Positions 1-62,082 of a stretch of 64,000 bases of DNA are shown here, in pieces; the first letter of the stretch is position 1, and every line of letters starts with the position of its first letter. The stretch covers positions 41,236 to 105,235 of the forward strand of contig CAMYKS010000010.1 in NCBI GenBank assembly GCA_947259115.1, in the 5' to 3' direction. Origin of the DNA: an uncultured Desulfobulbaceae bacterium (GTDB lineage: Bacteria; Desulfobacterota; Desulfobulbia; Desulfobulbales; BM004). The notes beneath the pieces were generated by a model, which saw only the letters and a list, made by a program, of their open reading frames with translations, was not told where the DNA came from and made no database searches. The position numbers and the translations under genes were made by a program.

Positions 1-69
1 CCGCCGCTGCTGCGGTTCCTGGGGTGCGCAACCGCTTATGACAAGGGAAAAGCAAAAAAATACCAGCAT
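1..69 (-). CDS. lipoprotein, N-terminal 23 codons only (gene runs off the left edge)
   Basis: The minus-strand ATG at 69..67 opens MLVFFCFSLVISGCAPQEPQQRR, a hydrophobic signal followed by a lipobox (ISG|C). It is absent from the ORF track because the window truncates it. It lies on the same strand as the PPIase-like gene, 134 nt downstream of it. Confidence 0.35.
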   Translation of the reverse strand, partial: MLVFFCFSLVISGCAPQEPQQRR

Positions 70-203
70 TCCCCAAAATAGTGTATTTCCTCTTTTCACT
101 CCAACCTCATCCATAATGATTTAATAAAACTAGAACTAATAATGATACTTTACGATGTTTTCTTCAGATCATTTTTTGTTACCTTATAATGGTTTTCAGT
201 ACT

Positions 204-1820
204 TCAGTTTGTATATTCTGCCTGCAATTTTTTCCAGGCCTTACGGTTTGCTGTTATGTCTGACTCAGCAAGGAGCATTTCAAGATATTCCTGCCGGGCA
301 CGCGAAAACTTCTCATTCTTAAGCTTCATGGAAATTTTATCCTTTACCTTTGCAAGGGGCATAGGTTCCTTGACCTTTCTGTCAACCAGCTTTGCCAAAG
401 AAACGTTATTAAACATTGCAAAGGGTTGACTCACCTCGTCTATATCAAGTTCATTTACCGCTTTGACAACTTCCGGGGACATCTGACTGGCCGGGATATT
501 CATGACAGGAATCGGGTTCAGGTTATATTTTTTACCCGCCCGGGTAAAATCCTGTCCTTGCTTCACTTCCAGCAATACATCGTTGATCGGTTTCTCTTCT
601 CCTTCCAGGAGGATTACACTCAGTGTTTCCGGCGGCCTGAACTCATCAGGATTCTCCTGGTAATACACATTAATCTCTTCGTCTGTTACCGATACCTGCG
701 ATGCGATAAGTCGTCCCTCCAATTCCTTGATCAATCTATTTTCCTGGTAAAATTCATAGGTCCATTTAAATGGGGGCTTCTCTTCATATTTCCTGTCACG
801 GGCCTCCCAGGTCAGAAGGTACTCAGCAATCATACCGTTCAAAAACCCCCTGGCCATTTTTTCCTTTTCTTCTTCGGTCCAGACCTTGTTCTTTCTGACG
901 CTGTATTCCTTACGGACATCTTTTACCACCATCCAGAAGGGCATGTTTTCCCTGTTTGTAGTAACCACAGGCCTGCCCAAAAGTTCTTTGCCCGGATCTT
1001 TATCAACCATGGCCATCAATTCCTCATCAACCCGGACATCATATTTTTTCCACAGGTCCTCGATCAGTTCAGCAGTCAGTTCAGCTTCCTTCTCCTTCCA
1101 CATCATTTCGCGAATTTGATTTTGTTTCATGTCAAATTCGTTTTCAGCAGGCTTGTTTTTTTCTTCCAGGCGTAAAATGATAAAATAATTCCCACCCTGT
1201 TGCGGTGTTGATACCTGGCCCACGGAAAATTGTTCCAGTCCATTGCGCAGTTCCTGATTATCACGGAAATTAAGAGGACGGAACCTGCCTTCTCTCAAAA
1301 AAGGGGCCCCTTCTGACCCGGCTTTTTTCTTGAGATCATCGAAGGTATATTCTTTATCTGCAATACCTCTGAAGGAATTTTCTGCTTTTTCCTCAGTGTC
1401 GAAATAGAGCAATGACATCCGGTATATGGGAGTATAATCGGCCTGGTAGCGCTCCTTCATCTCCTTTTCACTGAGTTCTAACCGGGAATCAACTGCATCG
1501 TTTTTCAACAGGATCCGGGTTCGCACCTTATAAAAAACATCAATCTTTCGCTGATAATTTGGTTCCTGGTCAAGCTCCATACTCCTGGCTTCCTGGGCCA
1601 GGAGTTTCCATTCGACAAACTGCTCTATGTCATCGGGGAAACGACTCCCTGCATCGCTCCAATTTTCCCACCAGCGCTTAAAATCATCCGGATTGTATGA
1701 AACACCGTTTATATTGACGAGATTGCCGGCATCCTTCCACGGCCATGCAGCAAAGGAAACGGCGGTGCAGAAAAGATTCACAAGAAAGGTGAGGATTATA
1801 ATATGTACTATTCTATACAT
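204..1820 (-). CDS. periplasmic SurA/PpiD-like chaperone with degenerate parvulin (PpiC-type) domains
   Basis: 538-aa ORF with an N-terminal signal or anchor (IIILTFLVNLFCTAVSFAAW). It has a helical SurA_N-like region and two parvulin-like segments (..VGQVSTPQQGGNYFIILRLEE.. and ..DEVSQPFAMFNNVSLAKLVD..). It overlaps the upstream gene by 13 nt, suggesting translational coupling. Confidence 0.6.
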   Translation of the reverse strand: MYRIVHIIILTFLVNLFCTAVSFAAWPWKDAGNLVNINGVSYNPDDFKRWWENWSDAGSRFPDDIEQFVEWKLLAQEARSMELDQEPNYQRKIDVFYKVRTRILLKNDAVDSRLELSEKEMKERYQADYTPIYRMSLLYFDTEEKAENSFRGIADKEYTFDDLKKKAGSEGAPFLREGRFRPLNFRDNQELRNGLEQFSVGQVSTPQQGGNYFIILRLEEKNKPAENEFDMKQNQIREMMWKEKEAELTAELIEDLWKKYDVRVDEELMAMVDKDPGKELLGRPVVTTNRENMPFWMVVKDVRKEYSVRKNKVWTEEEKEKMARGFLNGMIAEYLLTWEARDRKYEEKPPFKWTYEFYQENRLIKELEGRLIASQVSVTDEEINVYYQENPDEFRPPETLSVILLEGEEKPINDVLLEVKQGQDFTRAGKKYNLNPIPVMNIPASQMSPEVVKAVNELDIDEVSQPFAMFNNVSLAKLVDRKVKEPMPLAKVKDKISMKLKNEKFSRARQEYLEMLLAESDITANRKAWKKLQAEYTN

Positions 1821-2425
1821 TGTGCTATGAATCCTTCAGAGGCCCAGCGTTCAAGGATTTCCTGAGACACCAGGCTGATTAAGTTTGTTGATGTGTTGAC
1901 GACCCCAAAATGCATGACTTTGCGGTATTCGTCGCCTTTTCTTCGATGGTATGTCGTCCATATTGTTCTGCCGGAAGCTGCTTCAACCAACCGTACTTCA
2001 AGGGTCAGGAAAGGCACTTCCCTATCGCTGCCGAATTCAAGGGACTTCCCCATGTCCAGGATGTTACCTGCAATCAGGTATTGCACATTGAGATAGTTGC
2101 CAAGTATCTGCAGTTCTTCAATATTCGGCTTCCTGGCAAAGGGGATCATTCTTATCTGCCTGTAGGCATGGCGGATATCCCCTTCCTGGACGAGTTCAAA
2201 ACTGTCCAGTTCAGCGAGTTCTGCCTGAAAAATCCTATAGACAACAACAGCATCTTCAGTTGATTCTATTTCATTGGAAAAAGGCAATACTGCCAGACGG
2301 CAGACATTGGAGTCCGGCAGGCTTGTTAGTCTATGAAACTTCAAAGATTTACCGGAACAGGCGGTCAGCAACAGTAAGGAACTGAAAATAAGCAGTCCCA
2401 GTGTTGTTTTTCTTCCAAAAATCAT
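1808..2425 (-). CDS. lipoprotein with CsgG/LpoB-like alpha/beta domain (paralog 1 of 3)
   Basis: Signal peptide plus lipobox LLTAC. It carries the motif set LAVLPFSNE .. YLIAGNILDMG .. LTLEVRLVEAASGRTIWT, which is shared with the 4266..4856 product and the N-terminal domain of the 2538..4256 product. Confidence 0.55.
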   Translation of the reverse strand: MIFGRKTTLGLLIFSSLLLLTACSGKSLKFHRLTSLPDSNVCRLAVLPFSNEIESTEDAVVVYRIFQAELAELDSFELVQEGDIRHAYRQIRMIPFARKPNIEELQILGNYLNVQYLIAGNILDMGKSLEFGSDREVPFLTLEVRLVEAASGRTIWTTYHRRKGDEYRKVMHFGVVNTSTNLISLVSQEILERWASEGFIAQCIE

Positions 2426-2537
2426 TGGCTCCGTATCTCATATTGCGTCAAAGGGTACAGGTACGCATGGAAAGAATTCATGAATTAGTATAAGTATCAA
2501 GTACGAGTCGGACAAGCAGCGATGGACTATTTGTTGC

Positions 2538-4256
2538 CTATTTTTCAGATAACCAGGCCCAAGAATCATCATCTTCATTCGGAGCGTCAGAAGTTTCCTC
2601 TTCCTGGGTCCCAGTTTTACGCAGGGCCAGCAGATACAGGTCATCAATATCCACCTGGGTCTTGTTGCCTAAAACATCCCGCAGAACAACCCGCCCTTCA
2701 ATTTTACTGTTGTCCTCTGCATCCCACTCAAAAGGGATGGTAAAATGGGCGGGCAACTCATTACCATCCGCAGATTTCAGCAATTCTCCGGTTTCGTTCC
2801 AAACCTCCAGCATCCAGTACTGTAAAGGTATTTCCTTATCCTGGCTGTCCACGATAATCTGCAGGGCATTGCTGGCTTTCTCAACCTCCAGGGTCAAATC
2901 AGGTGGATGTGGTCTATAGGCTACTTCCTCGAGGGTCTCCACCTCGTTGCCGGCCCTGTCCCAACCCTTTAATCGCAAGCGGTAAATTCCTTCCTGCACT
3001 GGAAAACCGTTAAAACCCTGGCCGCGCCAATGAAGTTTTCTCGGCAGGCTCCCTTTTCCCTCGTCACCCATGACAACCTTGCCGGTTTCATCCTCAACCC
3101 GTATCTGCCAGTGGGAAAAAGGTTCGCGATTCTTTACTGTCGGCAGAATAAAGATTTTATCCCTGAAGGTAATCAAACCCTTCAGTTTACGTCCTTTTAT
3201 CAGCAGATTAATGTCGGGCGGCGTACTGTCAACTGTATAATTCCCGACAAATGCGAGCTGCTGATCACCGGCCGGCCAACGCAGGATAAGGCTTACAGGA
3301 TACACATCATCCTCTATGGCCCCTGCCCATACCCCTTCAAAAAACTGAGGCTTAAGATCGGTGGCAGCCAGGTTTAGGGACTCGTGGCCGACTTCACGGA
3401 AAATTCCTTTCTCAATTTCCGAGCCTGTCCAGGAGGCTTCATAAAAAAGACCGTCTGTCGACTGCTGCGCCAGATGGACACGGTTACCGACCTTGATGAA
3501 TATCTGGGGGCTGTCGTATTGCTCTTCGTCAGTATCAAGCTGCACAATGCATTTTACCTGCTCACCAGGCCTCACATAACGGGGGGTCAAATTCATTTTC
3601 TTAATCTGCAATGTCGGGGGACGCTCCCCGGCCTCGGAATCGAATATGAGCGCCTGATTTACTCTCTCATCCATATCAGCAGGCCATTCGGATAACACCT
3701 TTTTTACAAGAATGGGCCAGAGCTCATCCAGGGTTGCCGGTTCGTTCAGGCCCAACATATGCTGCATATCAGCAAGGCTCAAGCCCCCGGTGTTTGTCCA
3801 TATTGTTTTACCGTCTCTGGTACGCACAAGGCTAAGGGACAGGCCGAAGGTCGGTGAATTCTTGGCATCACGCTGGCTGATTGTGCCGAAGAGAACCAGG
3901 TCCACACCCAGTTTTTTCTGCAGCAGAAGTAAACGGTCGGTATCCAGATAACTGAGCCAGCGCACCCGTTCAGAAGCCATGAAGGAAATGATGTCATCCT
4001 CCAAGGCAATACTGAGACCTCTGGCGGCCATTTCCTCGTATAAATAGCGGGTAATTTCAAAGTTGGTGCTGTTGATTCCCCTACTCAGGTCCTCAACGGG
4101 AAAAACTGCAATGGATTCCTGCCGCGCAGAGGCAATATCCACCGGGGTAATAATCAAAAATGCGGCCAGCATCAGGATTGCAGCACTGCCCGAAATTGCG
4201 GCCAAAAACCTGTGATAAAAGAATTTCTTATGCGGATAATTCAATGTGTACTTCAT
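2538..4256 (-). CDS. membrane-anchored CsgG/LpoB-like domain protein with C-terminal Ig-like/FlgD-Ig-like beta-sandwich repeats (paralog 2 of 3)
   Basis: 572 aa with an N-terminal TM helix (AILMLAAFLIITPV). The N-terminal domain carries IAVFPVEDL .. LVLFGTISQ .. LSLSLVRTRDGKTIWT. The C-terminal two thirds is beta-rich, with a FlgD-Ig-like segment (LHWRGQGFNGFPVQEGIYRLRLKGWDRAGN) and an acidic tail. Confidence 0.5.
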   Translation of the reverse strand: MKYTLNYPHKKFFYHRFLAAISGSAAILMLAAFLIITPVDIASARQESIAVFPVEDLSRGINSTNFEITRYLYEEMAARGLSIALEDDIISFMASERVRWLSYLDTDRLLLLQKKLGVDLVLFGTISQRDAKNSPTFGLSLSLVRTRDGKTIWTNTGGLSLADMQHMLGLNEPATLDELWPILVKKVLSEWPADMDERVNQALIFDSEAGERPPTLQIKKMNLTPRYVRPGEQVKCIVQLDTDEEQYDSPQIFIKVGNRVHLAQQSTDGLFYEASWTGSEIEKGIFREVGHESLNLAATDLKPQFFEGVWAGAIEDDVYPVSLILRWPAGDQQLAFVGNYTVDSTPPDINLLIKGRKLKGLITFRDKIFILPTVKNREPFSHWQIRVEDETGKVVMGDEGKGSLPRKLHWRGQGFNGFPVQEGIYRLRLKGWDRAGNEVETLEEVAYRPHPPDLTLEVEKASNALQIIVDSQDKEIPLQYWMLEVWNETGELLKSADGNELPAHFTIPFEWDAEDNSKIEGRVVLRDVLGNKTQVDIDDLYLLALRKTGTQEEETSDAPNEDDDSWAWLSEK

Positions 4257-4265
4257 GGAAACGTA

Positions 4266-4856
4266 TTAAAAATAACCGGCTGGAGCTGTCTTCAACAAAG
4301 TCCTGACCAGTTTAAGGGTTACCTGGTAGGAGTCATCGGCTTTGAGGCCTAACAATCTCCTGCCAAATGATTCGCCGCTTAAGTTCCCGGAAGCCTGCCA
4401 CAGGATCAGGCCAGAATTGACCTCTAATAACCTGAGAGTCAGGGCCATTTCCGGATAATCGGAGCTTCCTATCCTGCCGGTCCCGGCAAGGTCAATGGTC
4501 CCGAGGATGACTGCCTGGGTATCCAGGCGCTGACCTATCCTTTTCAGGGTCAAGGGGTCAATTGGAGCTCCTCTTTCAACACCCTCCTCATAAAGTACGT
4601 TGTCAACCAGCACCTTTTCCACGGTGTCGAACAATCCCAGTTCCAGAACCTGAGTAATGGTGACATCCCGGGCCCGTTCAGCGGCAAAAGTATCCGAACT
4701 GTTATTCTCAAAGGGAATGACCGCTATGCGTTGAATAAAACCGAAATCCACCTCTTCCCGCACAAACGATTTTGTTACCGCTCTGCCGCCGCAGCCGGTG
4801 AGCAAAAGAACCCAAAATAGTAAGCACCCATAGAATACCAATTTTCGCATGATCAT
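4266..4856 (-). CDS. lipoprotein with CsgG/LpoB-like alpha/beta domain (paralog 3 of 3)
   Basis: Signal peptide plus lipobox LLTGC. Motifs IAVIPFENN .. AVILGTIDLAG .. LTLRLLEVNSGLILWQ. Its stop lies 9 nt before the start of the next gene. Confidence 0.55.
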   Translation of the reverse strand: MIMRKLVFYGCLLFWVLLLTGCGGRAVTKSFVREEVDFGFIQRIAVIPFENNSSDTFAAERARDVTITQVLELGLFDTVEKVLVDNVLYEEGVERGAPIDPLTLKRIGQRLDTQAVILGTIDLAGTGRIGSSDYPEMALTLRLLEVNSGLILWQASGNLSGESFGRRLLGLKADDSYQVTLKLVRTLLKTAPAGYF

Positions 4857-4998
4857 TCCCCTTATAACGTTTTATGCAATTATAATTCCTGTTTTGCAAA
4901 TAACAATGAAATAACTCATTATTTTTTTTAAAGTTATGTATTTAGGCCCAAAAAACATCAACTGTCCCCACTTGCAACAAAACTTCACGCCTGACCCA

Positions 4999-7062
4999 TT
5001 AATCGGGTTTTGTATAATGATAGTTCAAGCGTGCCTGAAAGCTCCACTGGTCATCTTCCTCTTCAGTGATCCCGTAATTACCGGACAAATTAAAGTTGAA
5101 CACGGGATTGATCAACCAACTCCATATGCCGGTGAAAAAGTGATCCGTATCATCCTGATGGAGTAAATTGTATGACAGTGTGACCCTGTTCTTCCTGTTG
5201 GGCGCAATTCCCAGTTCAACCCTGTAAGCGGTTGATGTATCAGATTCGTCACCCCAGTCAACAATCAATGTATTATTGACATACATTATTTCGGACAAGC
5301 GCCAGTTCAGGGTTGCATCATTCCTATGGGCATCGGTGTTGTCATCGAGATCCCTTGAAAATCTCTGATCCAGAGTGAATATCAGGGAGGGTCGCAACCG
5401 GGCGGTTAGTTGCAGCCTTTCTGAAAAGGTATCAGTCCGGAAGCCTTCACGTGCATCGGTATAATTCAGGTCGAGTGAGCTGTCGAGGTCATCATAGAGC
5501 TGGGCTGTGGCATTAAAGCTATAGTTATTGTAGCGCTCATACAGATCACTGTCCTCATAATTTTCATTTCGTGTAGCACCCAGGCTTACATCCAGGGTAT
5601 CAAGGGGTGAACTGCTTAAGGACAGGCCGTATCTCCGGTACTTCTTCTCCGGGCGCTCATCGGGCATGTCCCTGTTTTCACTTGCATTTATCCTGGCGGC
5701 AAAATACCTCCCCGGCGACCAGGTCAGCGCACCGTTATTATCTATGCGCTCCCGGTCATCTGCAGCGGAGTTTTCCTGCCTGTCATAGGAGAAGTTATAG
5801 TTGAAGCGCAGGTTCTGCATGAGCTGATAGGCAAGGTTGAAGCGGCTCTGGTATGTCTCCCTGATTATATCATCATCAATACCTGACCCTCCCTCTTCAC
5901 CAAATATCTTACGGAACAACTCCATGGCAACAATCTCGGTAACCTGCGTGGGCAGCAGGCTGCCTGTGTCTGCCACAAGTTTCAGCCAACGCTCATCCAG
6001 GCTGTCCACCTCAAATTCAAAGCGCTGCTCCAGGTCATCGTAAACAAAGGGCAGCGAGGCTTCCTCCAGTACCCAGTCGATGCCATTGTCACTGCTGTAG
6101 AGATCCCAGGAAAAATTGGAGGCAAATTCATCAATCTCATTCTGGGCAGTCAGATAAATGACATCAACCTGCTGAAAATCGCTGTTGACGCCAAGGTTCA
6201 TGGGTTCATTTGCCGGTTTTATTTCCAGAATGACCGGCGGGTCTTCATCAGTCAGGAGAAAGGAGGCATCGTTGGTCAGGGCCCCTGTCAGCGGATCAGT
6301 GGTCTCTTCATAGGATGCCTGGGAAACTATGGCCGGCAGCAGGGCGAAACCACCTTCTCCGGTCCGGCCGGAAAAAGAATTTTTATTGTGCAGGTAGTTC
6401 AGGGTAAGGCCGAGGCGCAGCCGCTTGCTGAAGAGACTCTGGGCCGCTCTCAGGCCGGCACGCTGGGTGAGGTTTTCGCTTTCAATGTCGTTTTTCTCGA
6501 TGGCATTGTCCCGATTCCAGTCGAAACTGTAGTAAAGGCTCATCCAGTTCCAGTAGGCCCAGCCCACGCGTCCGTCGGCAAAATCTATACGGCTTGTGGT
6601 TTCCGAATCTATTTTGGCGCCCCTCTGTCCGTAAGACATGGACATGGTCGGTAAAGACCGGTTTATCCAGGAACTCCCCAGGCGGCTGGACCAGAACCAG
6701 TTCTCACGATCATCGTTTTTGGAATCCGTCCTGTAACTGTAATTACCGTAGAGGCTGAAGCTGTATATATCGTTGAAATTATTCAGGGTAAGGGCTGGAG
6801 AGATGATATCACTGTCGTAGTCTTCTTCAATACGCTTGGAGTAGCGCAGGCTGCCGTCCATAGTTATATTATCCGTCAGGTCTGTCCTGCCGCTGTAGCT
6901 GGCATTATAATTCTGGCGGAAATCGCTATCCTGGTCCTTGCTGTCAGCGTAGGACCACTGGCCGTTAAGGCTCAATGCGCCTGCTGCCGCACCATGCACC
7001 CCACACTGGCTGCACAGAAGTACTGCACAGAAAAGCCTCAGAAGTTTTGCAAGGACTCTCAT
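4999..7062 (-). CDS. predicted outer-membrane beta-barrel protein with a central soluble (jelly-roll/discoidin-like) insert
   Basis: The ORF runs to 7152, but Met at 7062 starts a plausible signal peptide (MRVLAKLLRLFCAVLLCSQCGVHGAAAGA). The composition is rich in N/D/S/Y, with many alternating amphipathic strands (YSFSLYGNYSYR, LRLGLTLNYLH, RFNYNFSYD, RVTLSYNLLH). A middle segment of ~130 aa (..FSWDLYSSDNGIDWVLEEA..ERWLKLVADTG..) is not barrel-like. Confidence 0.55.
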   Translation of the reverse strand: MRVLAKLLRLFCAVLLCSQCGVHGAAAGALSLNGQWSYADSKDQDSDFRQNYNASYSGRTDLTDNITMDGSLRYSKRIEEDYDSDIISPALTLNNFNDIYSFSLYGNYSYRTDSKNDDRENWFWSSRLGSSWINRSLPTMSMSYGQRGAKIDSETTSRIDFADGRVGWAYWNWMSLYYSFDWNRDNAIEKNDIESENLTQRAGLRAAQSLFSKRLRLGLTLNYLHNKNSFSGRTGEGGFALLPAIVSQASYEETTDPLTGALTNDASFLLTDEDPPVILEIKPANEPMNLGVNSDFQQVDVIYLTAQNEIDEFASNFSWDLYSSDNGIDWVLEEASLPFVYDDLEQRFEFEVDSLDERWLKLVADTGSLLPTQVTEIVAMELFRKIFGEEGGSGIDDDIIRETYQSRFNLAYQLMQNLRFNYNFSYDRQENSAADDRERIDNNGALTWSPGRYFAARINASENRDMPDERPEKKYRRYGLSLSSSPLDTLDVSLGATRNENYEDSDLYERYNNYSFNATAQLYDDLDSSLDLNYTDAREGFRTDTFSERLQLTARLRPSLIFTLDQRFSRDLDDNTDAHRNDATLNWRLSEIMYVNNTLIVDWGDESDTSTAYRVELGIAPNRKNRVTLSYNLLHQDDTDHFFTGIWSWLINPVFNFNLSGNYGITEEEDDQWSFQARLNYHYTKPD

Positions 7063-7234
7063 GGTGTTGTTCGCGGATGTTCCTCTTTGAATTCCCTCAT
7101 CACCCCTTGCAGCAATGCTGCTCCACCAACCGGATACTCCGTAGCACAGCACGGAAAAAGTGCACTGTAAAAAATGTTTGCCGGGTCATGCGCTCAGTAT
7201 ATTTACTGCTGCTGCAGAGACCGGTCAGCCTGCA

Positions 7235-7279
7235 TAAAAATCTGGCCCCTCGATGAACTTTTCTTGATCACGAGGGGCC
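7235..7279 (-). terminator. intrinsic terminator downstream of the OmcS-like gene
   Basis: The minus strand reads GGCCCCTCGTGA-loop-TCATCGAGGGGCC followed by AGATTTTTAT. The stem has 9+3 bp with one bulged T and is followed by a T-run, 57 nt after the stop codon. Confidence 0.7.
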
Positions 7280-7335
7280 AGGTTAAGACCACATCAGGCC
7301 TTATGCATGGTTATGCAGCGTAACACTGCAAAAAT

Positions 7336-8409
7336 TTACTTTGTTGTGTGGCACACAAAGCATCCATCCGTACCGCCAGTGCCTGCATCCATGAGGCCAT
7401 AGGACCAGCGCAGCATATCGGCATAGGGCGATCCATGGGCCCGGTGGCACGAGGTACAGACAACGATGTCGTCGCCTGCAGCCACCGCAGAGAAGCTGAG
7501 GGAGCCTGCGCCTGTTGTATTGGTGCCGACCGGGGACTGCACCTCATAGGTGACATAGGCTGCATACTCAGTGCCTGTGGCAGCACTCAACTGGAAATCG
7601 GTGGGATGGCGTCTCCAGGGTGAAGCACTACCGGCACCCAGATCCGTTGCAGGAACGTAGGTGCCGTGGAAATCACCGTGGCATAGGTTGCAATGCGCCT
7701 GGAAGGTATCTGAGGAACCTGTTGCCGGAGTTGCATCACCATAGTAAGCGTTATGGTCGTCGGAAGCATAGGTGAACTCCCAGTCCCCATTCTCACCGCC
7801 CTGGATATAAGAGGCCCCACCACCACTCAGAAAACGGTAACTGGCGCCCCTGCTGGAACCATCGGCCCAGCCGTCGGTATCCGTTGAATAGGTGCTGCCA
7901 GCATTGTAATGATGCGCACCGCCGATATGACAGCTCTCGCATTCAATTAAGTTGCCGCTAAAATTCGTGCCAACTGTGTTTCCCGGGGGTTCGCTCAGGG
8001 TTGCGTCGGGACTGGCTACACCAACAACGTTGTGCCCCTTGTTATCCTCAGCATCACCGGAGGTAGCAACCCAATAGAAATTTCCACCGGCTAGCGTAAT
8101 ACCAGTGTTACCTGTCTCGTCATAGGCTGGGTCTGTAGTGTGCAGAACAATGGGCGCGCTCCACTGGGCACTGACCGCGCCGTCTCCCGCATCACCGGTG
8201 TGGCAGGCCACACAACCGGCTACCCGCAGCAGGTAATTCTGCGCCTGAGTGGTGCCCACTGTCATGTGTGTACCATCCTGGCTGTTGTGCATGGCGTGAC
8301 ATTTGTTGCACAACCCCACCATGACTGCATCCGCCGTGCCCTGGGCCAGCAGAAATACCCCGGTGGCCATAGCACTGCAGAGTAAAGTCCTTGTTAGCAA
8401 TTTTTTCAT
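7336..8409 (-). CDS. omcS: OmcS-family hexaheme c-type cytochrome (candidate nanowire subunit)
   Basis: 357 aa with a Sec signal (..AQGTADA|V) and six CxxCH motifs at C34, C66, C157, C240, C318 and C350. Colinear blocks match my recollection of G. sulfurreducens OmcS: CNKCHAMHNS, GGNFYWV, NKGHNVVG, YRFLSGG, CNLCHGDFH, RRHP, CTSCHRAHGSPYADMLRW and C-terminal CFVCHTTK. A strong SD (AGGAGG) precedes the ATG. Confidence 0.85.
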   Translation of the reverse strand: MKKLLTRTLLCSAMATGVFLLAQGTADAVMVGLCNKCHAMHNSQDGTHMTVGTTQAQNYLLRVAGCVACHTGDAGDGAVSAQWSAPIVLHTTDPAYDETGNTGITLAGGNFYWVATSGDAEDNKGHNVVGVASPDATLSEPPGNTVGTNFSGNLIECESCHIGGAHHYNAGSTYSTDTDGWADGSSRGASYRFLSGGGASYIQGGENGDWEFTYASDDHNAYYGDATPATGSSDTFQAHCNLCHGDFHGTYVPATDLGAGSASPWRRHPTDFQLSAATGTEYAAYVTYEVQSPVGTNTTGAGSLSFSAVAAGDDIVVCTSCHRAHGSPYADMLRWSYGLMDAGTGGTDGCFVCHTTK

Positions 8410-8601
8410 TCCACCCTCCTACTCAAAATTCGTTGTCTCTTGTGAAGCGGTGAGGACTGATCCCCTCCCAGCTTCGCCGCTCTTCCTAAAATTAGTTAGT
8501 ATCTACCGTAAATAACCACCTGATGCAACTGGAAATAATTTTCTTTCTTGTTTAATTTTCATTTTGTGTTTAGTGGCATATATAAAGTCATTCTATCTAT
8601 A

Positions 8602-8617
8602 TGCAATTATTGCGCCA
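8602..8617 (-). promoter_or_regulatory. candidate sigma54 (RpoN) -24/-12 promoter for the OmcS-like gene
   Basis: The minus strand reads TGGCGCAATAATTGCA against the consensus TGGCAC-N5-TTGCW. The GG-N10-GC spacing is exact. It lies ~190 nt upstream of the ATG at 8409. Confidence 0.5.
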
Positions 8618-8733
8618 CAAGCAACGAAAAATACGTAACAAAAAGTTCCTAGTCATATAGCATCCAGTCAGCCCTTGTACAATCAACGGTTCATCCCTTG
8701 CAAAATTTTATTGCAAAATTCCATGGAAACCTC

Positions 8734-8758
8734 GCCCATGACAAAGATTGTCATGGGC
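8734..8758. promoter_or_regulatory. perfect 11-bp inverted repeat, candidate enhancer-binding (UAS) site or terminator hairpin
   Basis: GCCCATGACAA-aga-TTGTCATGGGC. It lies ~120-150 bp upstream of the sigma54-like element and 85 nt downstream of the NHL gene stop. No T-run follows on either strand. Confidence 0.3.
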
Positions 8759-8842
8759 TGCACATTGAGCCGCCCCCCAAATTGACAAAAAATGTCACAT
8801 ATTGCCGCAAAATGTCACACATGGAGTGTGCACCATACTCTT

Positions 8843-10885
8843 TCATGGGACATCCATTACCTGCACCCTGTGGTTGAACATATCGGCCACAATAACGTTG
8901 CCGCGCCGGTCCACTGCAATATGGGACGGAAACTGAAACCAGCCTTCAGACAATCCCTGCCCCCCGAACTCAAGCAGATATCTGCCGTCCTTATAGGTAT
9001 AGGCATTGATGGCATGCCGCATGTAATCTACGACGTAGATGACCTCCCGGTGGACATCAACAGCAATGCTCCTCGGGTTGCTGAGCTTGCCGGTGGACCC
9101 TCCCAGTTCACCAAAGGCAAAGAGGAAATTCTCATCCCTGTCGAGCACGAAAACGCGGCCGGCAATATTGGCGAGGATGTATATCCTGCCCTTGGTATCC
9201 ACCACAACATCCTCCACCTTGAGTGCGCCGGGGTGGCTGGGATCATTGCCCATCTCTTCACTCACGCCGCCTACCTTCAAGGGTACGAGCCAGCGCTTGA
9301 AATTTCCTTCCAGGTCAAGCACCAGCACACCTTTTGCGCCATTGCCGGATATATAGAGCGTATCATTGCCAGGACCGAGGGCCATGTTCTGCGGCACAAA
9401 ATTACCAGCAATACCGGGAATTTCAGCAAAGAAAATATCACGCACTTTAAAAAATGCAGCGTTGAGCACCCTGATCATCGGCGCTATCCTGGTTCCTGCA
9501 TCATCACTGGTTTCTCCCTGGGCCACATAAATATTCCCCTGCTTATCAACTGTCATTCCCATGGGATTACTGATTCCCCTACCCGGGCCAAGTGCGGCCA
9601 CGGGAAAATAGTCCTGCCCGTAAATTGTCACCCTGGTATTTACCTGGCCGCCGGAACTGAGCATATATATCTCATCCATGAACGGGTCATAGTGGACCTC
9701 TCTGGGGAAAGAAATTCTTCGGTCATAGATGTCCCGGAAAAAAACCTTGACCACCCGCACAGGAGACAGGCCGCTTGGCTGACCCCGCTTGGCGAATTTC
9801 TCACCCTGGTCAAAAATATCGGCTCCAGGGGTGTCCGTGCCTTCGTCCGCATCCTTTAGGTCCAGCAGGGTGGCAGTTTCCTGCCGGGGCACAACAGCGG
9901 CAGTGGTAACTGCTGCATCGTCTGCCTTGTTCGGCTGGGCTGCATCTCCCATGGACGCTCCACCGGCCTGGCCCCCTTCTGCAACGGTCTCAAAGGACCC
10001 GTCCAGTTCACCGCTGCTTTCCTCAAGCTGTTCGTCCGCAAGAGCATCCGGGGCTACCAAGGCAACAGGAGCCGGAACCAATTCCGCCGCAGATTGATAC
10101 TGTCTGGATATGCGCTCTGCCTTGATGTATGCCTGCAAAATGTTGGCGCCATCAAGGGGCTCCCCAACCGTTCCAAGGAATGCATCCGCGTCTGCCAGGC
10201 TCTCAAATCTGCCGATTCTGACAGTATGGTACCCCTGTACCTTCTCTATGCGCAGATGATCACGCTGCGTTTCCCGTAATGCTTTTACCAGAAACTGGTA
10301 TTTTTTCTCAGCAGCATCTTCAATGCTGTAGCTGCCCACCTGGATTGTATAGTACTCCTGCTGCTCATTGAAACCGGTTGCAAAATTTGTTGTTGGTGCA
10401 AGGGTTTCAGCCGCTGTTTCTTTTTCAGGAGAAACCGGCAGAATATCATTTACCGATTTTTTCGGGACTGATGCGGTATCCTGGCTAAGAGGCAGAGAAG
10501 CCTCTTCGTGCAAAACAGGTTCATATAATAAGGATATTCGCTCGGGCTTGTTATGGGCTTGCAGAATAAGGGCCCCGGCAAGGGGTTCACCGGCTGCCCC
10601 AACTATCCGATCTGCTTCGCTCCATGAACCAAACCTGCCAAGCCTTACTGTATAGTAGCCACCCACCTTTTCAACACGCAGGTAATCCCGCTGATCAGGC
10701 GCAAGACTCTCAGCCAGGGAATGGAATAACCTTGTTGCAGGCGGTTCCTGGCTGTAGCTTCCGGCTTGGATTGTATGGAACTGCGAAAGATCTGCGGCTC
10801 CGGCAGATGAATGGAACAGGAAAGGTGTCAGAAAAAAGAGGAGGAGGTAAATTGAAAAATGATATGAAATTATTCTAAATTTCAT
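8843..10885 (-). CDS. secreted SPOR-SPOR-NHL-repeat beta-propeller protein
   Basis: The ORF runs to 10936. Met at 10885 has a GAGGTG SD and starts a signal peptide (MKFRIISYHFSIYLLLFFLTPFLFHSSAGA). There are two SPOR-like repeats (FHTIQAGSYS..YYTVRLGRFGSWSEADRIV and YYTIQVGSYS..YHTVRIGRFESLADADAFL), then an Ala/Glu-rich linker, then NHL repeats (..LSNPRSIAVDVHREVIYVVD.., ..PSHIAVDRRGNVIVADMFNHRVQVMD). It contains no CxxCH. Confidence 0.75.
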   Translation of the reverse strand: MKFRIISYHFSIYLLLFFLTPFLFHSSAGAADLSQFHTIQAGSYSQEPPATRLFHSLAESLAPDQRDYLRVEKVGGYYTVRLGRFGSWSEADRIVGAAGEPLAGALILQAHNKPERISLLYEPVLHEEASLPLSQDTASVPKKSVNDILPVSPEKETAAETLAPTTNFATGFNEQQEYYTIQVGSYSIEDAAEKKYQFLVKALRETQRDHLRIEKVQGYHTVRIGRFESLADADAFLGTVGEPLDGANILQAYIKAERISRQYQSAAELVPAPVALVAPDALADEQLEESSGELDGSFETVAEGGQAGGASMGDAAQPNKADDAAVTTAAVVPRQETATLLDLKDADEGTDTPGADIFDQGEKFAKRGQPSGLSPVRVVKVFFRDIYDRRISFPREVHYDPFMDEIYMLSSGGQVNTRVTIYGQDYFPVAALGPGRGISNPMGMTVDKQGNIYVAQGETSDDAGTRIAPMIRVLNAAFFKVRDIFFAEIPGIAGNFVPQNMALGPGNDTLYISGNGAKGVLVLDLEGNFKRWLVPLKVGGVSEEMGNDPSHPGALKVEDVVVDTKGRIYILANIAGRVFVLDRDENFLFAFGELGGSTGKLSNPRSIAVDVHREVIYVVDYMRHAINAYTYKDGRYLLEFGGQGLSEGWFQFPSHIAVDRRGNVIVADMFNHRVQVMDVP

Positions 10886-10986
10886 TGACACCTCAAGCGA
10901 AATAACAGGTGAGCAGCTGTATTGCAAACTGCCCACCTGGGATATATGAAAAGATTAACTCAACATGACATGCTGCGATAAAGCAC

Positions 10987-11002
10987 TGCAATAATCAAGC
11001 CA
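10987..11002 (-). promoter_or_regulatory. candidate sigma54 -24/-12 promoter for the SPOR-NHL gene
   Basis: The minus strand reads TGGCTTGATTATTGCA, with correct GG-N10-GC spacing. It lies ~100 nt upstream of the ATG at 10885, in the gap after the dodecaheme gene. Confidence 0.4.
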
Positions 11003-11080
11003 TTGCCACTGCCCAAGTACAAAAACAAGATCTGACCTGTCAGTATACCCTCACCCCCAGTCCGTAACAAGGCTTAAATG

Positions 11081-11941
11081 CTATTTCTGAATATCATGGG
11101 CAATGCCATGGCATGCAGCACATTCCGCATATTTCTTATGAATAGAAGGATTATGCGGCTCGCCGTGGCATTCCTGGCAGGCGGGAATCCTGCCGTGTGA
11201 TGCATGACACTCGGCACAGGTCAAAGCTGAGTGCTTTGTCACACGTGCCTGTAATAACTGGTAAGCCTCATCGTGACAACCAGCACAGACTTCCTTGCTC
11301 TGGGTAATGGGATAGGAGATGCGAAGCGGCGTATGTACCGGGTGGCAGGCCAGACAATCAGGCGTTGCAAGTTGTGCCATGGGGCTGTGATTCTCATGGC
11401 ATTCAGCACATTGGGGAATACGGCCGTGTTTTTCCGAATGACAGGAGGAGCACTCCTGCTCTGTATGCATGCTCACCTCTGCCATAAGGCTTGCTGCAAC
11501 CTCGGTATGGCACAGTTTACAGCGCCCTTCAAGAGATCCGGGATCAGGAATGGAAACCAATGGCTTGTGGGGGTTGGCGTGGCATTCCAAGCACTGCATC
11601 ACCGGTTCCGCAGACCCGTGGGGTGCATCATGGCAGCTGGAACATTTGGGCATAATCGCCCCGTAATTATTGCGCAGTGGGTTATAGGCATGAAAGACCT
11701 CGTGGCATTCGGTACAGGCTACTGTCTGGTGCCTGGCGCCATTATCGCGCAGCCAATTGTAGTGTGTCGTATGGCAGCGGGCGCAATCCTCCAATGTCAG
11801 AGGCTGCACCGCTATAGTGTAAATACTGCCCTCAACCGTTTCAGCAGCAGCAGATTGGCAAAAGAAAAATGCTGCAAAAAGAATAAATGCCGGTGTGGTC
11901 ATTTTTACCAAACTACAATTGATTGTTTTTTTTCTTGCCAT
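11081..11941 (-). CDS. dodecaheme c-type cytochrome (GSU1996-like polymer of c7-type triheme modules)
   Basis: 286 aa with a signal peptide and 12 CxxCH motifs (CARCH, CTECH, CSSCH, CLECH, CKLCH, CSSCH, CAECH, CLACH, CAGCH, CAECH, CQECH, CAACH). There is an internal repeat, ..HGRIPxCxECH.. An SD (AGAGGTG) precedes the ATG. Confidence 0.9.
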   Translation of the reverse strand: MARKKTINCSLVKMTTPAFILFAAFFFCQSAAAETVEGSIYTIAVQPLTLEDCARCHTTHYNWLRDNGARHQTVACTECHEVFHAYNPLRNNYGAIMPKCSSCHDAPHGSAEPVMQCLECHANPHKPLVSIPDPGSLEGRCKLCHTEVAASLMAEVSMHTEQECSSCHSEKHGRIPQCAECHENHSPMAQLATPDCLACHPVHTPLRISYPITQSKEVCAGCHDEAYQLLQARVTKHSALTCAECHASHGRIPACQECHGEPHNPSIHKKYAECAACHGIAHDIQK

Positions 11942-11986
11942 GCCGCACCTCTTGTTTTTTCAGATATTTAACGGTAAAAATTTCAT

Positions 11987-12028
11987 AAAAAAAAATGGCA
12001 GGAGAGCCGATGATGCAGCTCCCCTGCC
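11987..12028 (-). terminator. intrinsic terminator between the two dodecaheme genes
   Basis: The minus strand reads GGCAGGGGAGC-loop-GCTCTCCTGCC (10/11 bp stem) followed by A and T9. It lies 14 nt after the upstream stop codon. Confidence 0.65.
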
Positions 12029-12041
12029 ATTGCGCAATGTC

Positions 12042-12839
12042 TTATTTAACCAGGAAATGCGCGTCCAGATGACAGTCTAGACAGTTGGGCATTTTCTGAT
12101 GCATAAATGACGAGTGGGGTTCGCCGTGGCAGGTCTGACACTGGGGCACATTGGGATGCTGCCCCCGGTGGCAGAAGGCACAGGTAAATGTCTGGTGCTT
12201 GGTCACGGTTTTTTCCAGCTGCTCGCCGACTTCCTCATGACATGGCACACAGAAAGCCCTCTGGGTGGTCATCGCATAATTAATTTGCAGCGGATGATGT
12301 GCAGGGTGACAGCCGAGGCAGTCACTGGTCAGTTGGCCTTCCGCGTGGGGCTCATGACAGTTGGAGCAATCGGGGATCTTGCCATGCACCTCGTGGCAGA
12401 AGGTACATGACTGCTCTGCATGGGCACTGGCGAAATTGGCAAAATCCTGCCCCGGGCCTTCATGGCAGGTGAGACACGGCTCTTTAATATCATCGGCAAG
12501 GTTCAGGGCCAGGGGTTCATGGGGATTCGAATGACAGGAGAGGCAGTTTTCCAGTTCAAAATGCGACCTCCCTTCATGGCACATGGAGCATTGCGGAATA
12601 ACTTCTTCCCCCCAGGGCGGATGCTCCTGGTGACAGTCCAGACAAGTAACAGCGGTCTGATGCTTGCCGCCGTTGCTGGCTATTGAGGCCGGCGCATCCT
12701 GGTGACACTTGACGCAGTCCGCTAAATCCAGAGAGGTCAGTTCTGCTTTTGCCTCACTGGGGAAAACAGCCAACATGGCAGCTGCAACGACAACTGCGCA
12801 GAGAAAACCAAATAAAGAATATCCTTTTTTTTCCATCAT
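12042..12839 (-). CDS. dodecaheme c-type cytochrome, tandem paralog
   Basis: 265 aa with a signal peptide (..VFPSEAKA) and 12 CxxCH motifs (CVKCH, CLDCH, CSMCH, CLSCH, CLTCH, CTFCH, CSNCH, CLGCH, CVPCH, CAFCH, CQTCH, CLDCH). Its module spacing matches that of the 11081..11941 product. Confidence 0.9.
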   Translation of the reverse strand: MMEKKGYSLFGFLCAVVVAAAMLAVFPSEAKAELTSLDLADCVKCHQDAPASIASNGGKHQTAVTCLDCHQEHPPWGEEVIPQCSMCHEGRSHFELENCLSCHSNPHEPLALNLADDIKEPCLTCHEGPGQDFANFASAHAEQSCTFCHEVHGKIPDCSNCHEPHAEGQLTSDCLGCHPAHHPLQINYAMTTQRAFCVPCHEEVGEQLEKTVTKHQTFTCAFCHRGQHPNVPQCQTCHGEPHSSFMHQKMPNCLDCHLDAHFLVK

Positions 12840-13185
12840 TTTAACACCCCTTTATCCTCCGGAAATATTAACTTGTCATACGAATATCTTTTCATAAAAA
12901 ATAATGAATGGAGTTTCATTATCAGACTATGTCTGCCTTTGTCAAGTGTTAAAAAATGTTCACTATTCTTCCGAAGCAGCTTCATCCTCCCAGCCTGACC
13001 TTTTTCCTGCGCACTCATCGGGGTGACACTGAAATAATTCTGTTCAGAGAGCCATCAGCCCATACGACTTTCCTTTGACTTAACATGCCCCGCCTCCTAT
13101 TATAGTGAAATTACATGGACAGTATTCATAGCTGAATAGTAGTATCCATACTATAGGGCATCTTTATTGTTAAAGCCACCATCGC

Positions 13186-15510: not shown

Positions 15511-17370
15511 TTGCACAAAAACAACAATATGCCCTCCAGATCAAGGATCATAGCGTTTCATCTGCTTTCTTTCACCCTGCTTGCAGCTGCAATAGCACTT
15601 CTCTATAGCAATACTTACAGGGTGCCGTTTTTTTTCGACGATAAGCCCAATATAGTCCTGAATCCGTTTTTAAGAATTGATGATATATCCTGGGAGAGCC
15701 TCAAGAAAGCTGCCGTAATGAGCCCCAATAGAAACAGGTGGCTGCCCAACATATCCTTTGCCCTGAACCATTATTTTGACGCATATGATGTCTGGGGATA
15801 CCACCTGATCAACACCCTCATCCACATTGCAACGGCTTTCACCCTGTACCTCCTGGGGCGGCTCACCCTGACTCTGCCTTCCATGGCTGGACGCTACAAA
15901 CACGCTGCAGAAATTGCCTTTACGGCAGCACTGGTCTGGGCAGTTCACCCCCTGCAAACCAATGGGGTAACCTACATCGTCCAGCGCATGACTTCAATGG
16001 GTGCTCTCTTCTATCTTCTGGCACTGTACTGTTACGTCAAAGCCAGGCTCCTGCACGCAAGCGGAGCTAAACTTTTTTTCTTCGGCCTGACCGTGCTGCT
16101 GACCGTCATGGCCCTTTTGAGCAAGGAAAACAGCGGCATGCTGCCAATGATAATTATCGCTTATGAACTGCTATTATTACGTCAGCCGGACACCGGTCTT
16201 TTCAGGCAGAAGAAAGTGGTTCTGGCGACCTTTGGGGCTTTTCTTCTTTTCATTTTTTTCTGCTGGTATTTTCTCGGCAGTAATCCCTTTACCAGCATCC
16301 TCGGCGGTTATGAACACAGAGAGTTCACCCTAGGCCAACGCCTGCTTTCCCAGGCCAGGATCGTTATACACTATCTTTCACTCATGGTTCTGCCGGTGCC
16401 GGACAGGCTCAACCTCATGTACGAGTATCGGGTGTCCACCGGCCTGCTGGCCCCCCCCCAGACACTTCTGGCACTCGGCGTTCTGGCCGGACTTGCTTTT
16501 CTGGTCTTCCGGATGTGCAAGCGGGACAGTCTCTTTGCCTTTGGCATTTCCTGGCTACTGATCAATCTGATCGTGGAATCTTCATTTATTCCATTGGAGC
16601 TCATTTTTGAACACCGCATGTATCTGCCCTCCATGTTTCTCATTCTTGCCATGGTTGCCTGGTGCTATAAACTGGCAGCGCCCAGGCCTGTCCTGGCCAG
16701 GGTGTCCATACTGCTGGTAGTTGCCCTGCTTTCGTCCGCCACCTGGCAGAGAAACATCGTATGGGATAATAGGATCAGCTTCTGGTCAGATGTTACAAGT
16801 AAATCCCCTGATTCCATGCGAGGCTGGGCAAATCTTGGGAATGCATACAGCGAGGCCCGGAAATATAAAACCGCAGAGCAATATCTGCTCAAAGCCATTG
16901 CCTTGGAAAAATACGATCAAAGTGGAAATTTCGGCAGGGCTGCCAAGAGAAATTACGCTGCCAATATCCATGACAATCTTGCCTTGGTGTATCGGGAACT
17001 CGGCCAATATCAAAAGGCATTAGATCACGCCAATACCTCCCTCGCCCTCAATCCTTCACGCCCGGAACCCCTTGTAACCATTGGCATAGTCTATGCCAAA
17101 ACCGATCAGCATGCAAAGGCATACGAGTATTTCATGCTGGCATGGTCAAAAGGCATTGAAAGTGTAGACCTGTACAATAACTGGGCGGTGAGTTCTTTCA
17201 ATATTGGGCAGGTGGACGAAGCAATCGATCTGCTTTATAAAGCCCTGAAAATTAATCCAGACCATCCTGAAAGTCATTATAACCTGGGTATTGCTTACAG
17301 CAGTAAAGGCATGCTTGAGGAGGCACAGCGGGAGATGCTGCGTGCCATGCAGCTTAGGCAGAAACAATAA
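15511..17370 (+). CDS. TMTC/PMT-like GT-C membrane protein with C-terminal TPR array, tandem paralog
   Basis: 619 aa with the same motifs as its neighbour (VPFFFDDKPNIV, VHPLQTNGVTYIVQRMTSM, FEHRMYLPSMF). The track start at 15511 is TTG; an ATG at 15529 is an alternative start. Confidence 0.6.
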   Translation: MHKNNNMPSRSRIIAFHLLSFTLLAAAIALLYSNTYRVPFFFDDKPNIVLNPFLRIDDISWESLKKAAVMSPNRNRWLPNISFALNHYFDAYDVWGYHLINTLIHIATAFTLYLLGRLTLTLPSMAGRYKHAAEIAFTAALVWAVHPLQTNGVTYIVQRMTSMGALFYLLALYCYVKARLLHASGAKLFFFGLTVLLTVMALLSKENSGMLPMIIIAYELLLLRQPDTGLFRQKKVVLATFGAFLLFIFFCWYFLGSNPFTSILGGYEHREFTLGQRLLSQARIVIHYLSLMVLPVPDRLNLMYEYRVSTGLLAPPQTLLALGVLAGLAFLVFRMCKRDSLFAFGISWLLINLIVESSFIPLELIFEHRMYLPSMFLILAMVAWCYKLAAPRPVLARVSILLVVALLSSATWQRNIVWDNRISFWSDVTSKSPDSMRGWANLGNAYSEARKYKTAEQYLLKAIALEKYDQSGNFGRAAKRNYAANIHDNLALVYRELGQYQKALDHANTSLALNPSRPEPLVTIGIVYAKTDQHAKAYEYFMLAWSKGIESVDLYNNWAVSSFNIGQVDEAIDLLYKALKINPDHPESHYNLGIAYSSKGMLEEAQREMLRAMQLRQKQ

Positions 17371-60544: not shown

Positions 60545-60579
60545 AGTTGTTAAAGAGAGAACAGGGAAGGAGAGAAAGA

Positions 60580-61026: not shown

Positions 61027-61043
61027 ATGATTTTTCTCTACCC

Positions 61044-61208: not shown

Positions 61209-61225
61209 CACACACGTGATAAAAA

Positions 61226-62026: not shown

Positions 62027-62082
62027 CAGCCTGGTGCCAGCCGACAAATCTCCTTCTGCACTATAAAAACAGCAGCCAGCCT

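Follow-up and report, generated by a model that had tools for sequence, protein, structure and literature searches.

By what route cytochromes that are already folded and loaded with heme get through the outer membrane and polymerize is a live question even in Geobacter, and it is raised again by a 64-kb stretch of DNA from an uncultured Desulfobulbaceae bacterium (contig CAMYKS010000010.1; hereafter the window, in whose positions all coordinates are given): do the nine consecutive minus-strand open reading frames (ORFs) at 204-12839 encode a system that makes such a polymer? We think that they probably do, and that the region represents a divergent osc-type cluster for assembling an OmcS-family hexaheme cytochrome into an extracellular polymer. 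An initial annotation of the letters alone had proposed an OmcS-type cytochrome with an osc-like set of chaperone, channel and propeller proteins in a non-Geobacter genome, and both homology and gene order uphold that proposal. All nine ORFs are present as then described; in the direction of transcription, and with the beginning of a tenth gene, they are as follows (lengths in amino acids, aa).

12042-12839, minus strand: dodecaheme cytochrome A, periplasmic; 265 aa, 12 CxxCH
11081-11941, minus strand: dodecaheme cytochrome B, periplasmic; 286 aa, 12 CxxCH
8843-10936, minus strand: SPOR-SPOR-linker-NHL propeller protein; 697 aa, start probably M18 at 10885
7336-8409, minus strand: OmcS-family hexaheme c-type cytochrome, the presumed filament subunit; 357 aa, 6 CxxCH
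4999-7152, minus strand: OscE-like outer-membrane beta-barrel; 717 aa, or about 687 aa from the probable start M31 at 7062
4266-4856, minus strand: OscF-like lipoprotein with an LpoB/GNA1162-like fold; 196 aa, lipobox LLTGC
2538-4256, minus strand: OscG-like protein with an N-terminal LpoB-like domain; 572 aa
1808-2425, minus strand: third LpoB-like protein, a lipoprotein; 205 aa, lipobox LLTAC
204-1820, minus strand: OscH-like periplasmic parvulin chaperone of the PpiD/SurA type; 538 aa
1-114, minus strand: tenth operon gene, 5' end only, with signal peptide and lipobox; cut by the window edge

The counts of 12, 12 and 6 CxxCH motifs give the total of 30 noted previously, all inside 7336-12839 (about 5.5 kb), with none in the remaining six of the nine products. 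Every one of the nine products bears an export signal, either a signal peptide or a lipobox. No further multiheme ORF occurs elsewhere in the window, and an NCBIfam scan of the cluster proteins returned nothing specific beyond the Pfam matches given below.

The hexaheme protein has CxxCH at residues 34, 66, 157, 240, 318 and 350; motifs 1-5 align to motifs 1-5 of OmcS, and in each protein motif 6 sits at the very C-terminal end. A profile built from 42 homologues retrieved OmcS (6EF8/6NEF) from the PDB with hmmsearch at E 8.4e-24 (positions 33-336 vs 8-348), the runners-up, none better than E 2e-4, being NrfB and further cytochromes of the nitrite-reductase type, and OmcE (7TFS) being marginal at E 0.034. 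Comparison of this family with a profile of 27 Geobacter-type OmcS sequences gave an hhalign probability of 99.9 % (E 2e-34, 315 columns). OmcS is by far the best solved relative of the hexaheme family, as the initial annotation had expected it to be. In BLASTP against Geobacter proteins the best scores go to OmcT (4e-16), OmcS (1e-12) and OscC (1e-7). The protein shares about 25 % identity with OmcS; the databases searched contain over 1,800 relatives of it, with identities of at most 65 %, and its best profile match in the species-representative genome collection is 42 % identical. Two signatures, CH-x-MHNSQ following heme 1 and C-x-SCHRAHGS at heme 5, do not vary among the 42 family members and can be aligned with OmcS. 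Within the first of these, H41 of the window protein (in CNKCHAMHNSQ) is invariant across the homologues and is aligned to the OmcS segment CEGCHTMHNS; heme 5 of OmcS is known to receive one axial His from the neighbouring subunit (bioRxiv 10.1101/492645). Heme motif 3 takes the form CX5CH (CAGTxGCH) in 31 of the 42 family members, and the canonical CXXCH at this position (residues 157-161) is found in the window protein and its nearest relatives (7 of 42). Judged by profile comparison and shared motifs, the hexaheme protein is a remote but clear homologue of OmcS.

Gene order provides the second line of evidence. Species-representative genomes were scanned with the hexaheme profile, yielding 486 relatives, and 80 loci were returned, from Desulfobulbia, Thermodesulfobacteriota, Nitrospirota, Desulfuromonadales and other groups. 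The order barrel, 196-type, 572-type, 205-type, peptidyl-prolyl isomerase (PPIase) is strictly collinear wherever these genes are present, and among the 33 loci with full 10-kb flanks the OscF/G/H-like core occurs in 28 and all five genes in 26. The expectation of synteny with OmcS-like genes is thereby borne out across phyla, and the same gene order in dozens of unrelated genomes is not due to chance. When four hexaheme homologues were looked up individually, the block was present in Desulfolithobacter, Thiovibrio and a Desulfuromonadales metagenome-assembled genome (MAG), and not in one Nitrospirae contig. The closest relatives of the window's Osc proteins come from Thiovibrio and Desulfurivibrio MAGs. 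In the Nitrospirae contig ERZ1742235 (locus L006) the OmcS-like hexaheme gene has rpoBC and the gene of a HigB-like toxin as neighbours and stands alone, osc genes being absent from the 10 kb around it, which indicates that the machinery is not clustered with every family member.

The Geobacter omcS-osc locus (GSU2505-GSU2493), with gene names after PMC13194489 (oscC = GSU2501, oscI = GSU2495, oscJ = GSU2494) and heme counts computed here, reads in order:

1: GSU2505-like NHL protein, 315 aa
2 and 3: OmcS and OmcT
4: OscB, 1017 aa, spermine-synthase-like
5: OscC, OmcS-like
6: OscD, 482 aa, propeller with one CxxCH
7: OscE, 725 aa
8: OscF, 199 aa, LpoB-like
9: OscG, 392 aa, two LpoB-like domains
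10: OscH, 571 aa, Rotamase_2
11: OscI, 660 aa, 26 hemes
12 and 13: OscJ (16 hemes) and OscK (NHL)

The barrel family of the window matches the OscE family over 618 columns (hhalign 100 %, E 2e-52). Its AlphaFold2 (AF2) model, with a predicted local distance difference test (pLDDT) score of 81.7, has 11 + 17 long strands (about 28), and a beta-sandwich insert splits the barrel strands at about residues 276-414. This insert had initially been listed as unexplained; all of the invariant OscE-family residues S354, W360, K391 and V393 are within it, and it is therefore a hallmark of the OscE family, indeed its most conserved part, and not a peculiarity of the window. Weak matches to F5_F8_type_C (F5/8 type C) are seen in 3-4 of 16 barrel family members. 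Foldseek searches with the barrel returned generic large barrels only, namely TonB-dependent receptors and MtrB, at template modelling scores (TM-scores) of 0.38 or less, and no match to an MtrB or Pcc porin sequence family was found for it in Pfam or NCBIfam.

Comparison of family profiles with hhalign (99.9 %, 99.4 % and 99.1 %) reveals one domain of about 150 aa that is shared by the 196-aa and 205-aa proteins and the first 200 residues of the 572-aa protein. The three had been described as CsgG/LpoB-like, two with lipoboxes, and of this description the shared domain and the lipoboxes stand while the CsgG label does not: the 196-aa protein just reaches the Pfam LpoB model (22.7 bits; cut-off 22.3), with a weak GNA1162 match, and against CsgG (PF03783) it scores 14 bits, under the 20.8 cut-off (E 0.031). 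We accordingly dropped 'CsgG-like' in favor of 'LpoB-like'. The 196-aa lipoprotein corresponds to OscF (BLASTP 34 % identity over 177 aa, E 1e-23; hhalign 100 %, E 2e-42). The 572-aa protein begins with a signal or anchor sequence without Cys, followed by an LpoB-like domain at about 46-194 and then by about 370 aa of immunoglobulin (Ig)-like beta-sandwich domains with a weak FlgD_ig match; hhalign finds no counterpart of this C-terminal part in Geobacter OscG. In tblastn, OscG residues 30-163 align to 4145-3744 in the 572-aa gene and residues 207-338 to 2335-1928 in the 205-aa gene. By hhalign the N-terminal domain of the 572-aa protein pairs with OscG residues 38-186 (98.7 %), and the 205-aa lipoprotein with OscG residues 206-364 (97.8 %) and also with OscF (99.0 %). 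On the basis of these alignments the 572-aa and 205-aa proteins are the two LpoB-like domains of OscG encoded as separate genes, and the triple set of paralogs, previously regarded as lacking an explanation, equals OscF plus the two LpoB-like domains of OscG. The 205-type gene is found in 47 of 85 loci, between the 572-type gene and the PPIase. In Geobacter OscG (locus L008, 12772-13950) the two LpoB-like domains are fused, and Desulfobulbia-type clusters match the C-terminal one by a separate gene; the Nitrospirota loci L010, L028, L047, L078 and L081 depart from both patterns, having a pair of 196-type genes and lacking the 205-type gene.

The 538-aa protein contains a Rotamase_2 (PpiC-type) domain in Pfam (E 1.5e-20) and matches OscH (BLASTP E 2e-13; family hhalign 99.6 %, 469 columns); the PPIase is always the last gene of the collinear block. 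A continuation of the series into a lipoprotein starting at 69 had been suspected: the lipobox (…VISGC, followed by APQEPQQRR) is indeed seen, in an ORF that starts at 114, with 69 as an alternative Met, and is cut off by the left edge. Next after the PPIase, 43 of 46 related loci have a gene for a lipoprotein of about 650 aa with 26 CxxCH, whose N-terminal pattern the tenth ORF shares. We infer, because just 38 residues are visible, that the tenth gene probably encodes an OscI-like 26-heme lipoprotein cytochrome. The next gene in these relatives encodes a cytochrome with 11-16 heme sites where the ORF is readable, and the two full-length examples have 16, as OscJ does; an OscK-like NHL protein follows that cytochrome in the Geobacter locus L008 and in L007. 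The left boundary of the cluster is thus outside the window.

The 697-aa protein shows two SPOR stretches (E 6e-15) and an NHL match (E 1e-10) in Pfam; for this SPOR-SPOR-NHL layout, as for the parvulin chaperone and the large barrel, Pfam and AF2 agree with what was first described. By hhalign the propeller resembles the GSU2505-like protein at 99.7 %, OscK at 97.7 % and OscD at 6.8 %. We considered OscD as its counterpart and ruled this out, given the lack of CxxCH and the 6.8 % against 99.7 %. By these comparisons the propeller is of the GSU2505/OscK type, which is without CxxCH in Geobacter as well, so that the missing heme motif, once thought puzzling, has a ready explanation. An NHL propeller stands beside the hexaheme gene in many loci. 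The 32 related propellers of the retrieved loci all lack the SPOR part; a full-length 700-aa SPOR-propeller homologue with 44 % identity, and at least 8 further clusters in which 1-4 SPOR domains are joined to this propeller, were recovered from 1.84 billion representatives. The SPOR anchoring, likewise initially listed as unexplained, is on this evidence a true variant, uncommon but recurring and not unique, as at least 9 other protein clusters carry the fusion. In the closest relative of the locus (L089, positions 1-2841, Joint Genome Institute metagenome 3300041075), whose hexaheme gene is 56 % identical, the NHL propeller 5' of that gene has no SPOR; it bears instead tandem repeats, each about 100 aa long and adding up to at least 600 aa (…YDL.D..D.V…FFYD.D..G.DGT…WDTSG..PG.YY.YG.ADD…). 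These repeats in place of SPOR suggest that the N-terminal elaboration of the propeller is variable.

Both dodecaheme cytochromes are compact, with about 19-20 aa per heme, a signal peptide and no lipobox. Pfam assigns Cytochrome_C7 and c3_2 to B, indicating repeated c7/c3-like modules, and PDB searches with the dodecahemes gave marginal c7 matches only, so no closer family is assigned. Homologues of B (40-58 % identity) occur in L035, L063, L013, L027, L026 and L084, adjoining OmcS-like genes in L035, L013, L027 and L026; homologues of A (42-52 % identity) occur in L027, L013, L026 and L017. The A type is paired with the B type and a propeller in L013, L027 and L026, and in L035 the paired dodecahemes lie next to an OmcS-like gene without a propeller.

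If the hexaheme protein is a filament subunit, is there a sign that it is made in larger amounts than its machinery? The candidate expression signals of the cluster (distances in nucleotides, nt) are:

8602-8617, minus strand: sigma-54-type promoter candidate TGGCGC-N5-TTGCA, TGGCGCAATAATTGCA; 193 nt 5' of the hexaheme ATG
7242-7281, minus strand: terminator-like 14-bp GC-rich hairpin followed by AUUUUUAU (U-run); 55 nt 3' of the hexaheme stop
12918-12945, minus strand: sigma-70-like promoter TTGACA-16-GATAAT with 11/12 consensus matches; 5' of the first gene
11994-12031, minus strand: terminator-like hairpin with a 16-bp stem and a T-run; 3' of the first dodecaheme gene

The hexaheme gene is preceded by a 433-bp AT-rich region and, 7 nt 5' of its ATG, by the Shine-Dalgarno sequence AGGAGG. 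The motif TGGCRC-N5-TTGCW has a single match in the 64-kb window, at 8602-8617; among homologous genes the strict sigma-54 motif lies within 450 nt 5' of 9 of 102, against about 0.003 expected per 450 nt, an enrichment of about 29-fold. The RNA fold of 7150-7340 has an energy of -68.2 kcal/mol (z = -4.98). With its sigma-54-like promoter, strong Shine-Dalgarno and post-stop hairpin, the hexaheme gene appears to be transcribed separately and strongly, and the hairpin at 7242-7281 may be an attenuator that holds the subunit transcript above the machinery transcript. Sigma-54 activators adjoin the cluster in Geobacter (L001) and Thiovibrio (L005). The sigma-70-like promoter at 12918-12945 marks the right boundary of the cluster; bracketed by it and by the terminator, the first dodecaheme gene may be expressed on its own.

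From these components a pathway can be proposed. The 357-aa apocytochrome would be exported by Sec through its signal peptide and would receive its six c-hemes in the periplasm, where, by analogy with Geobacter genetics, the OscH-like parvulin chaperone would fold or hold it. The OscE-like barrel, together with the 196-aa, 572-aa and 205-aa LpoB-like proteins, would then provide passage across the outer membrane. Outside the cell the subunits may polymerize head to tail, the His of the CH-x-MHNS motif completing the heme 5 coordination of the neighbouring subunit, as the alignment suggests. The NHL propeller, tethered to peptidoglycan by its two SPOR domains, may act as an accessory periplasmic factor that modulates assembly, again to judge from Geobacter, and the two dodecahemes and the 26-heme lipoprotein could, from their composition, be periplasmic heme wires feeding electrons to the filament. 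In G. sulfurreducens, OscH, OscEFG and OscD have been proposed to act in the folding, secretion and morphology of OmcS nanowires (Shen et al. 2025, Cell Chem Biol 32:239, doi 10.1016/j.chembiol.2024.12.013, as relayed in PMC13194489 and bioRxiv 10.1101/2025.11.06.686851).

Several points weigh against this proposal. That the window hexaheme protein leaves the cell and forms a filament is predicted from sequence relationships. A single-sequence phmmer search of the PDB did not reach OmcS, and the protein has about 40 residues fewer than OmcS between hemes 5 and 6. The His of the CH-x-MHNS motif is taken to be OmcS His16, the bridging ligand to heme 5. An AF2 model computed without hemes from the 42 homologues has a pLDDT of 52, and Foldseek with this model found no meaningful match in the PDB; a fold that depends on heme can be expected to model this poorly, and the outcome does not bear on likeness to OmcS either way. 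Neither OscB nor OscD has a tblastn match anywhere in the window, and OscC matches the single hexaheme gene only, so there is no second OmcS-like gene; the locus was called complete and self-contained at first, which cannot be maintained, as OscB, OscC and OscD are without a counterpart in the window and the operon runs off its left edge. OscB and OscC are absent also from the related loci L004, L005 and L007 when these are examined gene by gene. PMC12307469 still treats as speculative the channel role of OscEFG and the way in which OmcS is secreted. This last point can be turned into an argument for a porin-cytochrome conduit in place of a secretion machine, with the barrel sheathing a multiheme cytochrome in the way that MtrB encloses MtrA: the cytochrome inside would be a dodecaheme or the OscI-like lipoprotein with its 26 hemes, the LpoB-like proteins and the PPIase would assemble the complex, and the hexaheme protein would be an outer-face partner that need not polymerize. 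The recurrence of the 26-heme lipoprotein after the PPIase in 43/46 loci and the two heme-wire cytochromes in the same operon fit this idea, as do a barrel at least the size of MtrB and the presence of MtrB among its Foldseek matches; moreover, PMC10553843 describes filaments as invariably expressed together with a porin-cytochrome conduit, both in Geobacter and in the sulfate-reducing bacteria (SRB) that partner anaerobic methanotrophic archaea (ANME). We nevertheless hold it to be unlikely, given that the barrel is homologous to OscE and not to the MtrB/Pcc porins, that the MtrB match is generic (6r2q_B, TM-score 0.32-0.34, no better than TonB-dependent receptors), that LpoB-like lipoproteins and a PpiD-like chaperone are not part of known Mtr/Pcc conduits, and that Geobacter osc mutants affect OmcS nanowire production (Shen et al. 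2025, as summarized in PMC13194489 and bioRxiv 10.1101/2025.11.06.686851). Conduit and secretion roles are also not mutually exclusive and may coexist.

It is conceivable, too, that the hexaheme protein is a non-polymerizing OmcS paralogue of the OmcT/GSU2501 type, monomeric at the surface or in the periplasm, and that the osc-like genes serve its maturation only. OmcS alone is known to form a wire, its paralogues sharing the motifs while being of unknown function, and the Geobacter genomes with the eight-gene block all encode GSU2501 and not always omcS (bioRxiv 10.1101/2025.11.06.686851); an identity to OmcS of about 25 % and the shortening toward the C-terminal end point the same way. However, neither the heme-5 motif nor the position of the inter-subunit His varies within the family, the window protein scores higher against OmcT and OmcS than against OscC/GSU2501, and a structural subunit made in abundance would suit a gene with a strong ribosome-binding site, a promoter of its own and a hairpin behind it; a sister-clade member, moreover, is predicted to polymerize and is strongly induced on solid Fe(III) (PMC12545173). 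These considerations make a non-polymerizing paralogue quite improbable. The weak individual Pfam matches of the barrel and the LpoB-like proteins might even be taken to mean that unrelated envelope and cytochrome genes adjoin here by chance, a notion that is scarcely credible and is refuted by synteny, as the order recurs in 26-28 of the 33 fully flanked loci of different phyla and in Geobacter, and each counterpart is recovered by profile comparison at 97.8-100 % probability.

Returning to a filament-building osc-type cluster as the preferred reading, we may extend it, tentatively and against our own expectation, to a specific architecture: the Desulfobulbia/Thermodesulfobacteriota form could be a peptidoglycan-anchored, envelope-spanning platform, in which OscE represents a new class of pore, the three LpoB modules form a gating ring, and the SPOR-tethered propeller serves for positioning. 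The roughly 28-strand OscE barrel would let through the cytochrome, folded and carrying its hemes, or else hold the filament at its base, and the discoidin-like insert, its most conserved part, might lie in an extracellular loop, as the topology suggests, or act as a plug. If this were true, the split OscG and the SPOR fusion would amount to natural 'domain dissections' of independently acting parts.

The chromosomal setting is unremarkable. The remaining window is ordinary chromosomal housekeeping, including lpxD/A/I, glmS, lon, ftsY and selB, so that the cluster lies in a diderm chromosome and not in a mobile element; a SelB selenocysteine elongation factor at 45192-47114 (plus strand) and lpxD/A/I at 59486-62928 are consistent with the Desulfobacterota-like chromosome of a diderm that uses selenoproteins. 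In an Rfam scan of the window, neither rRNA nor tRNA nor any other family reached threshold. Adjoining the cluster is a paralogous pair at 13186-15387 and 15511-17370 (both plus strand), whose products both combine a multi-pass membrane domain with TPR repeats; a PMT_2+TPR protein is encoded farther away, at 30262-31896 (minus strand), and in Geobacter a gene of PMT_2+TPR architecture lies 5' of omcS (L001, 2287-3921). In view of that Geobacter gene the TPR-membrane/PMT_2 genes were considered as possible glycosylation partners in the cluster and rejected, not being conserved neighbours in the 85 loci. A single 578-aa ORF at 35411-37147 (minus strand) joins an IspH/LytB domain (E 1.5e-89) to a UbiA prenyltransferase domain, an unusual fusion.

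How, then, does the window cluster relate to known systems? The osc cluster has been described as 'widespread and ancient' (Shen et al. 2025, as relayed in PMC13194489, PMC12307469 and bioRxiv 10.1101/2025.11.06.686851), and machinery of this type is common among bacteria that cycle sulfur and metals; PMC10553843 records OmcS-like cytochromes from Desulfobulbia and Thermodesulfobacteria; as the cluster and these cytochromes have both been published, the window represents a highly divergent member of a known system. With the Geobacter locus it shares an OmcS-family gene followed by OscE (with its insert), OscF, OscG-type domains and OscH, in that order, a lipoprotein gene where the 26-heme OscI stands, and a GSU2505-type NHL propeller directly 5' of the cytochrome gene. 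It differs in having a single hexaheme gene and no omcT or oscC, in the split of the OscG domains over two genes, the first of which gained about 370 aa of Ig-like domains, in the two SPOR domains of the propeller, in the two dodecahemes that head the operon, and in protein identities of only 21-35 %. Some architectural variation is to be seen here: OscG is divided and enlarged, the propeller has its SPOR tether, and a dodecaheme pair is present. At 21-35 % identity to Geobacter and at most about 50 % to any species representative, the window copy is very divergent, and comparison isolates a conserved core of OscE barrel with insert, three LpoB-like modules, PPIase and 26-heme lipoprotein; OscB, OscC and OscD are dispensable outside Geobacter, and the GSU2505-type propeller travels with the subunit gene. 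The comparison thus offers targets for mutagenesis and structural work and supports the annotation of OmcS-like loci in sulfur-cycling Desulfobulbia.

Closer to the window, the Desulfurivibrio alkaliphilus protein DA_402 is an OmcS-like cytochrome of a sister clade and has CX2-5CH motifs; on iron oxide its induction exceeds 100-fold, and AlphaFold predicts that it polymerizes (PMC12545173), which ties a related Desulfobulbia cytochrome to iron-oxide respiration. DA_402 and the OmcS-like genes of ANME-partner SRB belong to one broad family with the window hexaheme protein, and the CX5CH at heme 3 that is typical of most family members, and has been reported for DA_402, is replaced in the window protein and its nearest relatives by CXXCH; the passages concerned of PMC12545173 and PMC10553843 do not describe companion genes.

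Curli (CsgG/CsgE/CsgF) and LpoB/GNA1162 offer a parallel in small outer-membrane lipoproteins of a related domain, encoded beside the gene for a secreted-fibre subunit. In contrast to curli, the CsgG model yields 14 bits for the window lipoprotein where 20.8 are called for, and the window has a separate barrel of about 28 strands, so that its lipoproteins need not form the pore. The MtrCAB, Pcc and OetABI conduits likewise combine a large outer-membrane barrel with periplasmic and lipoprotein multiheme cytochromes, but they have no sequence homology to the window barrel, whose fold match to MtrB is generic, and the window adds the chaperone and the LpoB-like proteins. The OmcE and OmcZ nanowires are also extracellular polymers of multiheme cytochromes, and OmcE shares the inter-subunit His ligation, yet their sequences are unrelated and their accessory genes are of other kinds, such as the OzpA protease for OmcZ.

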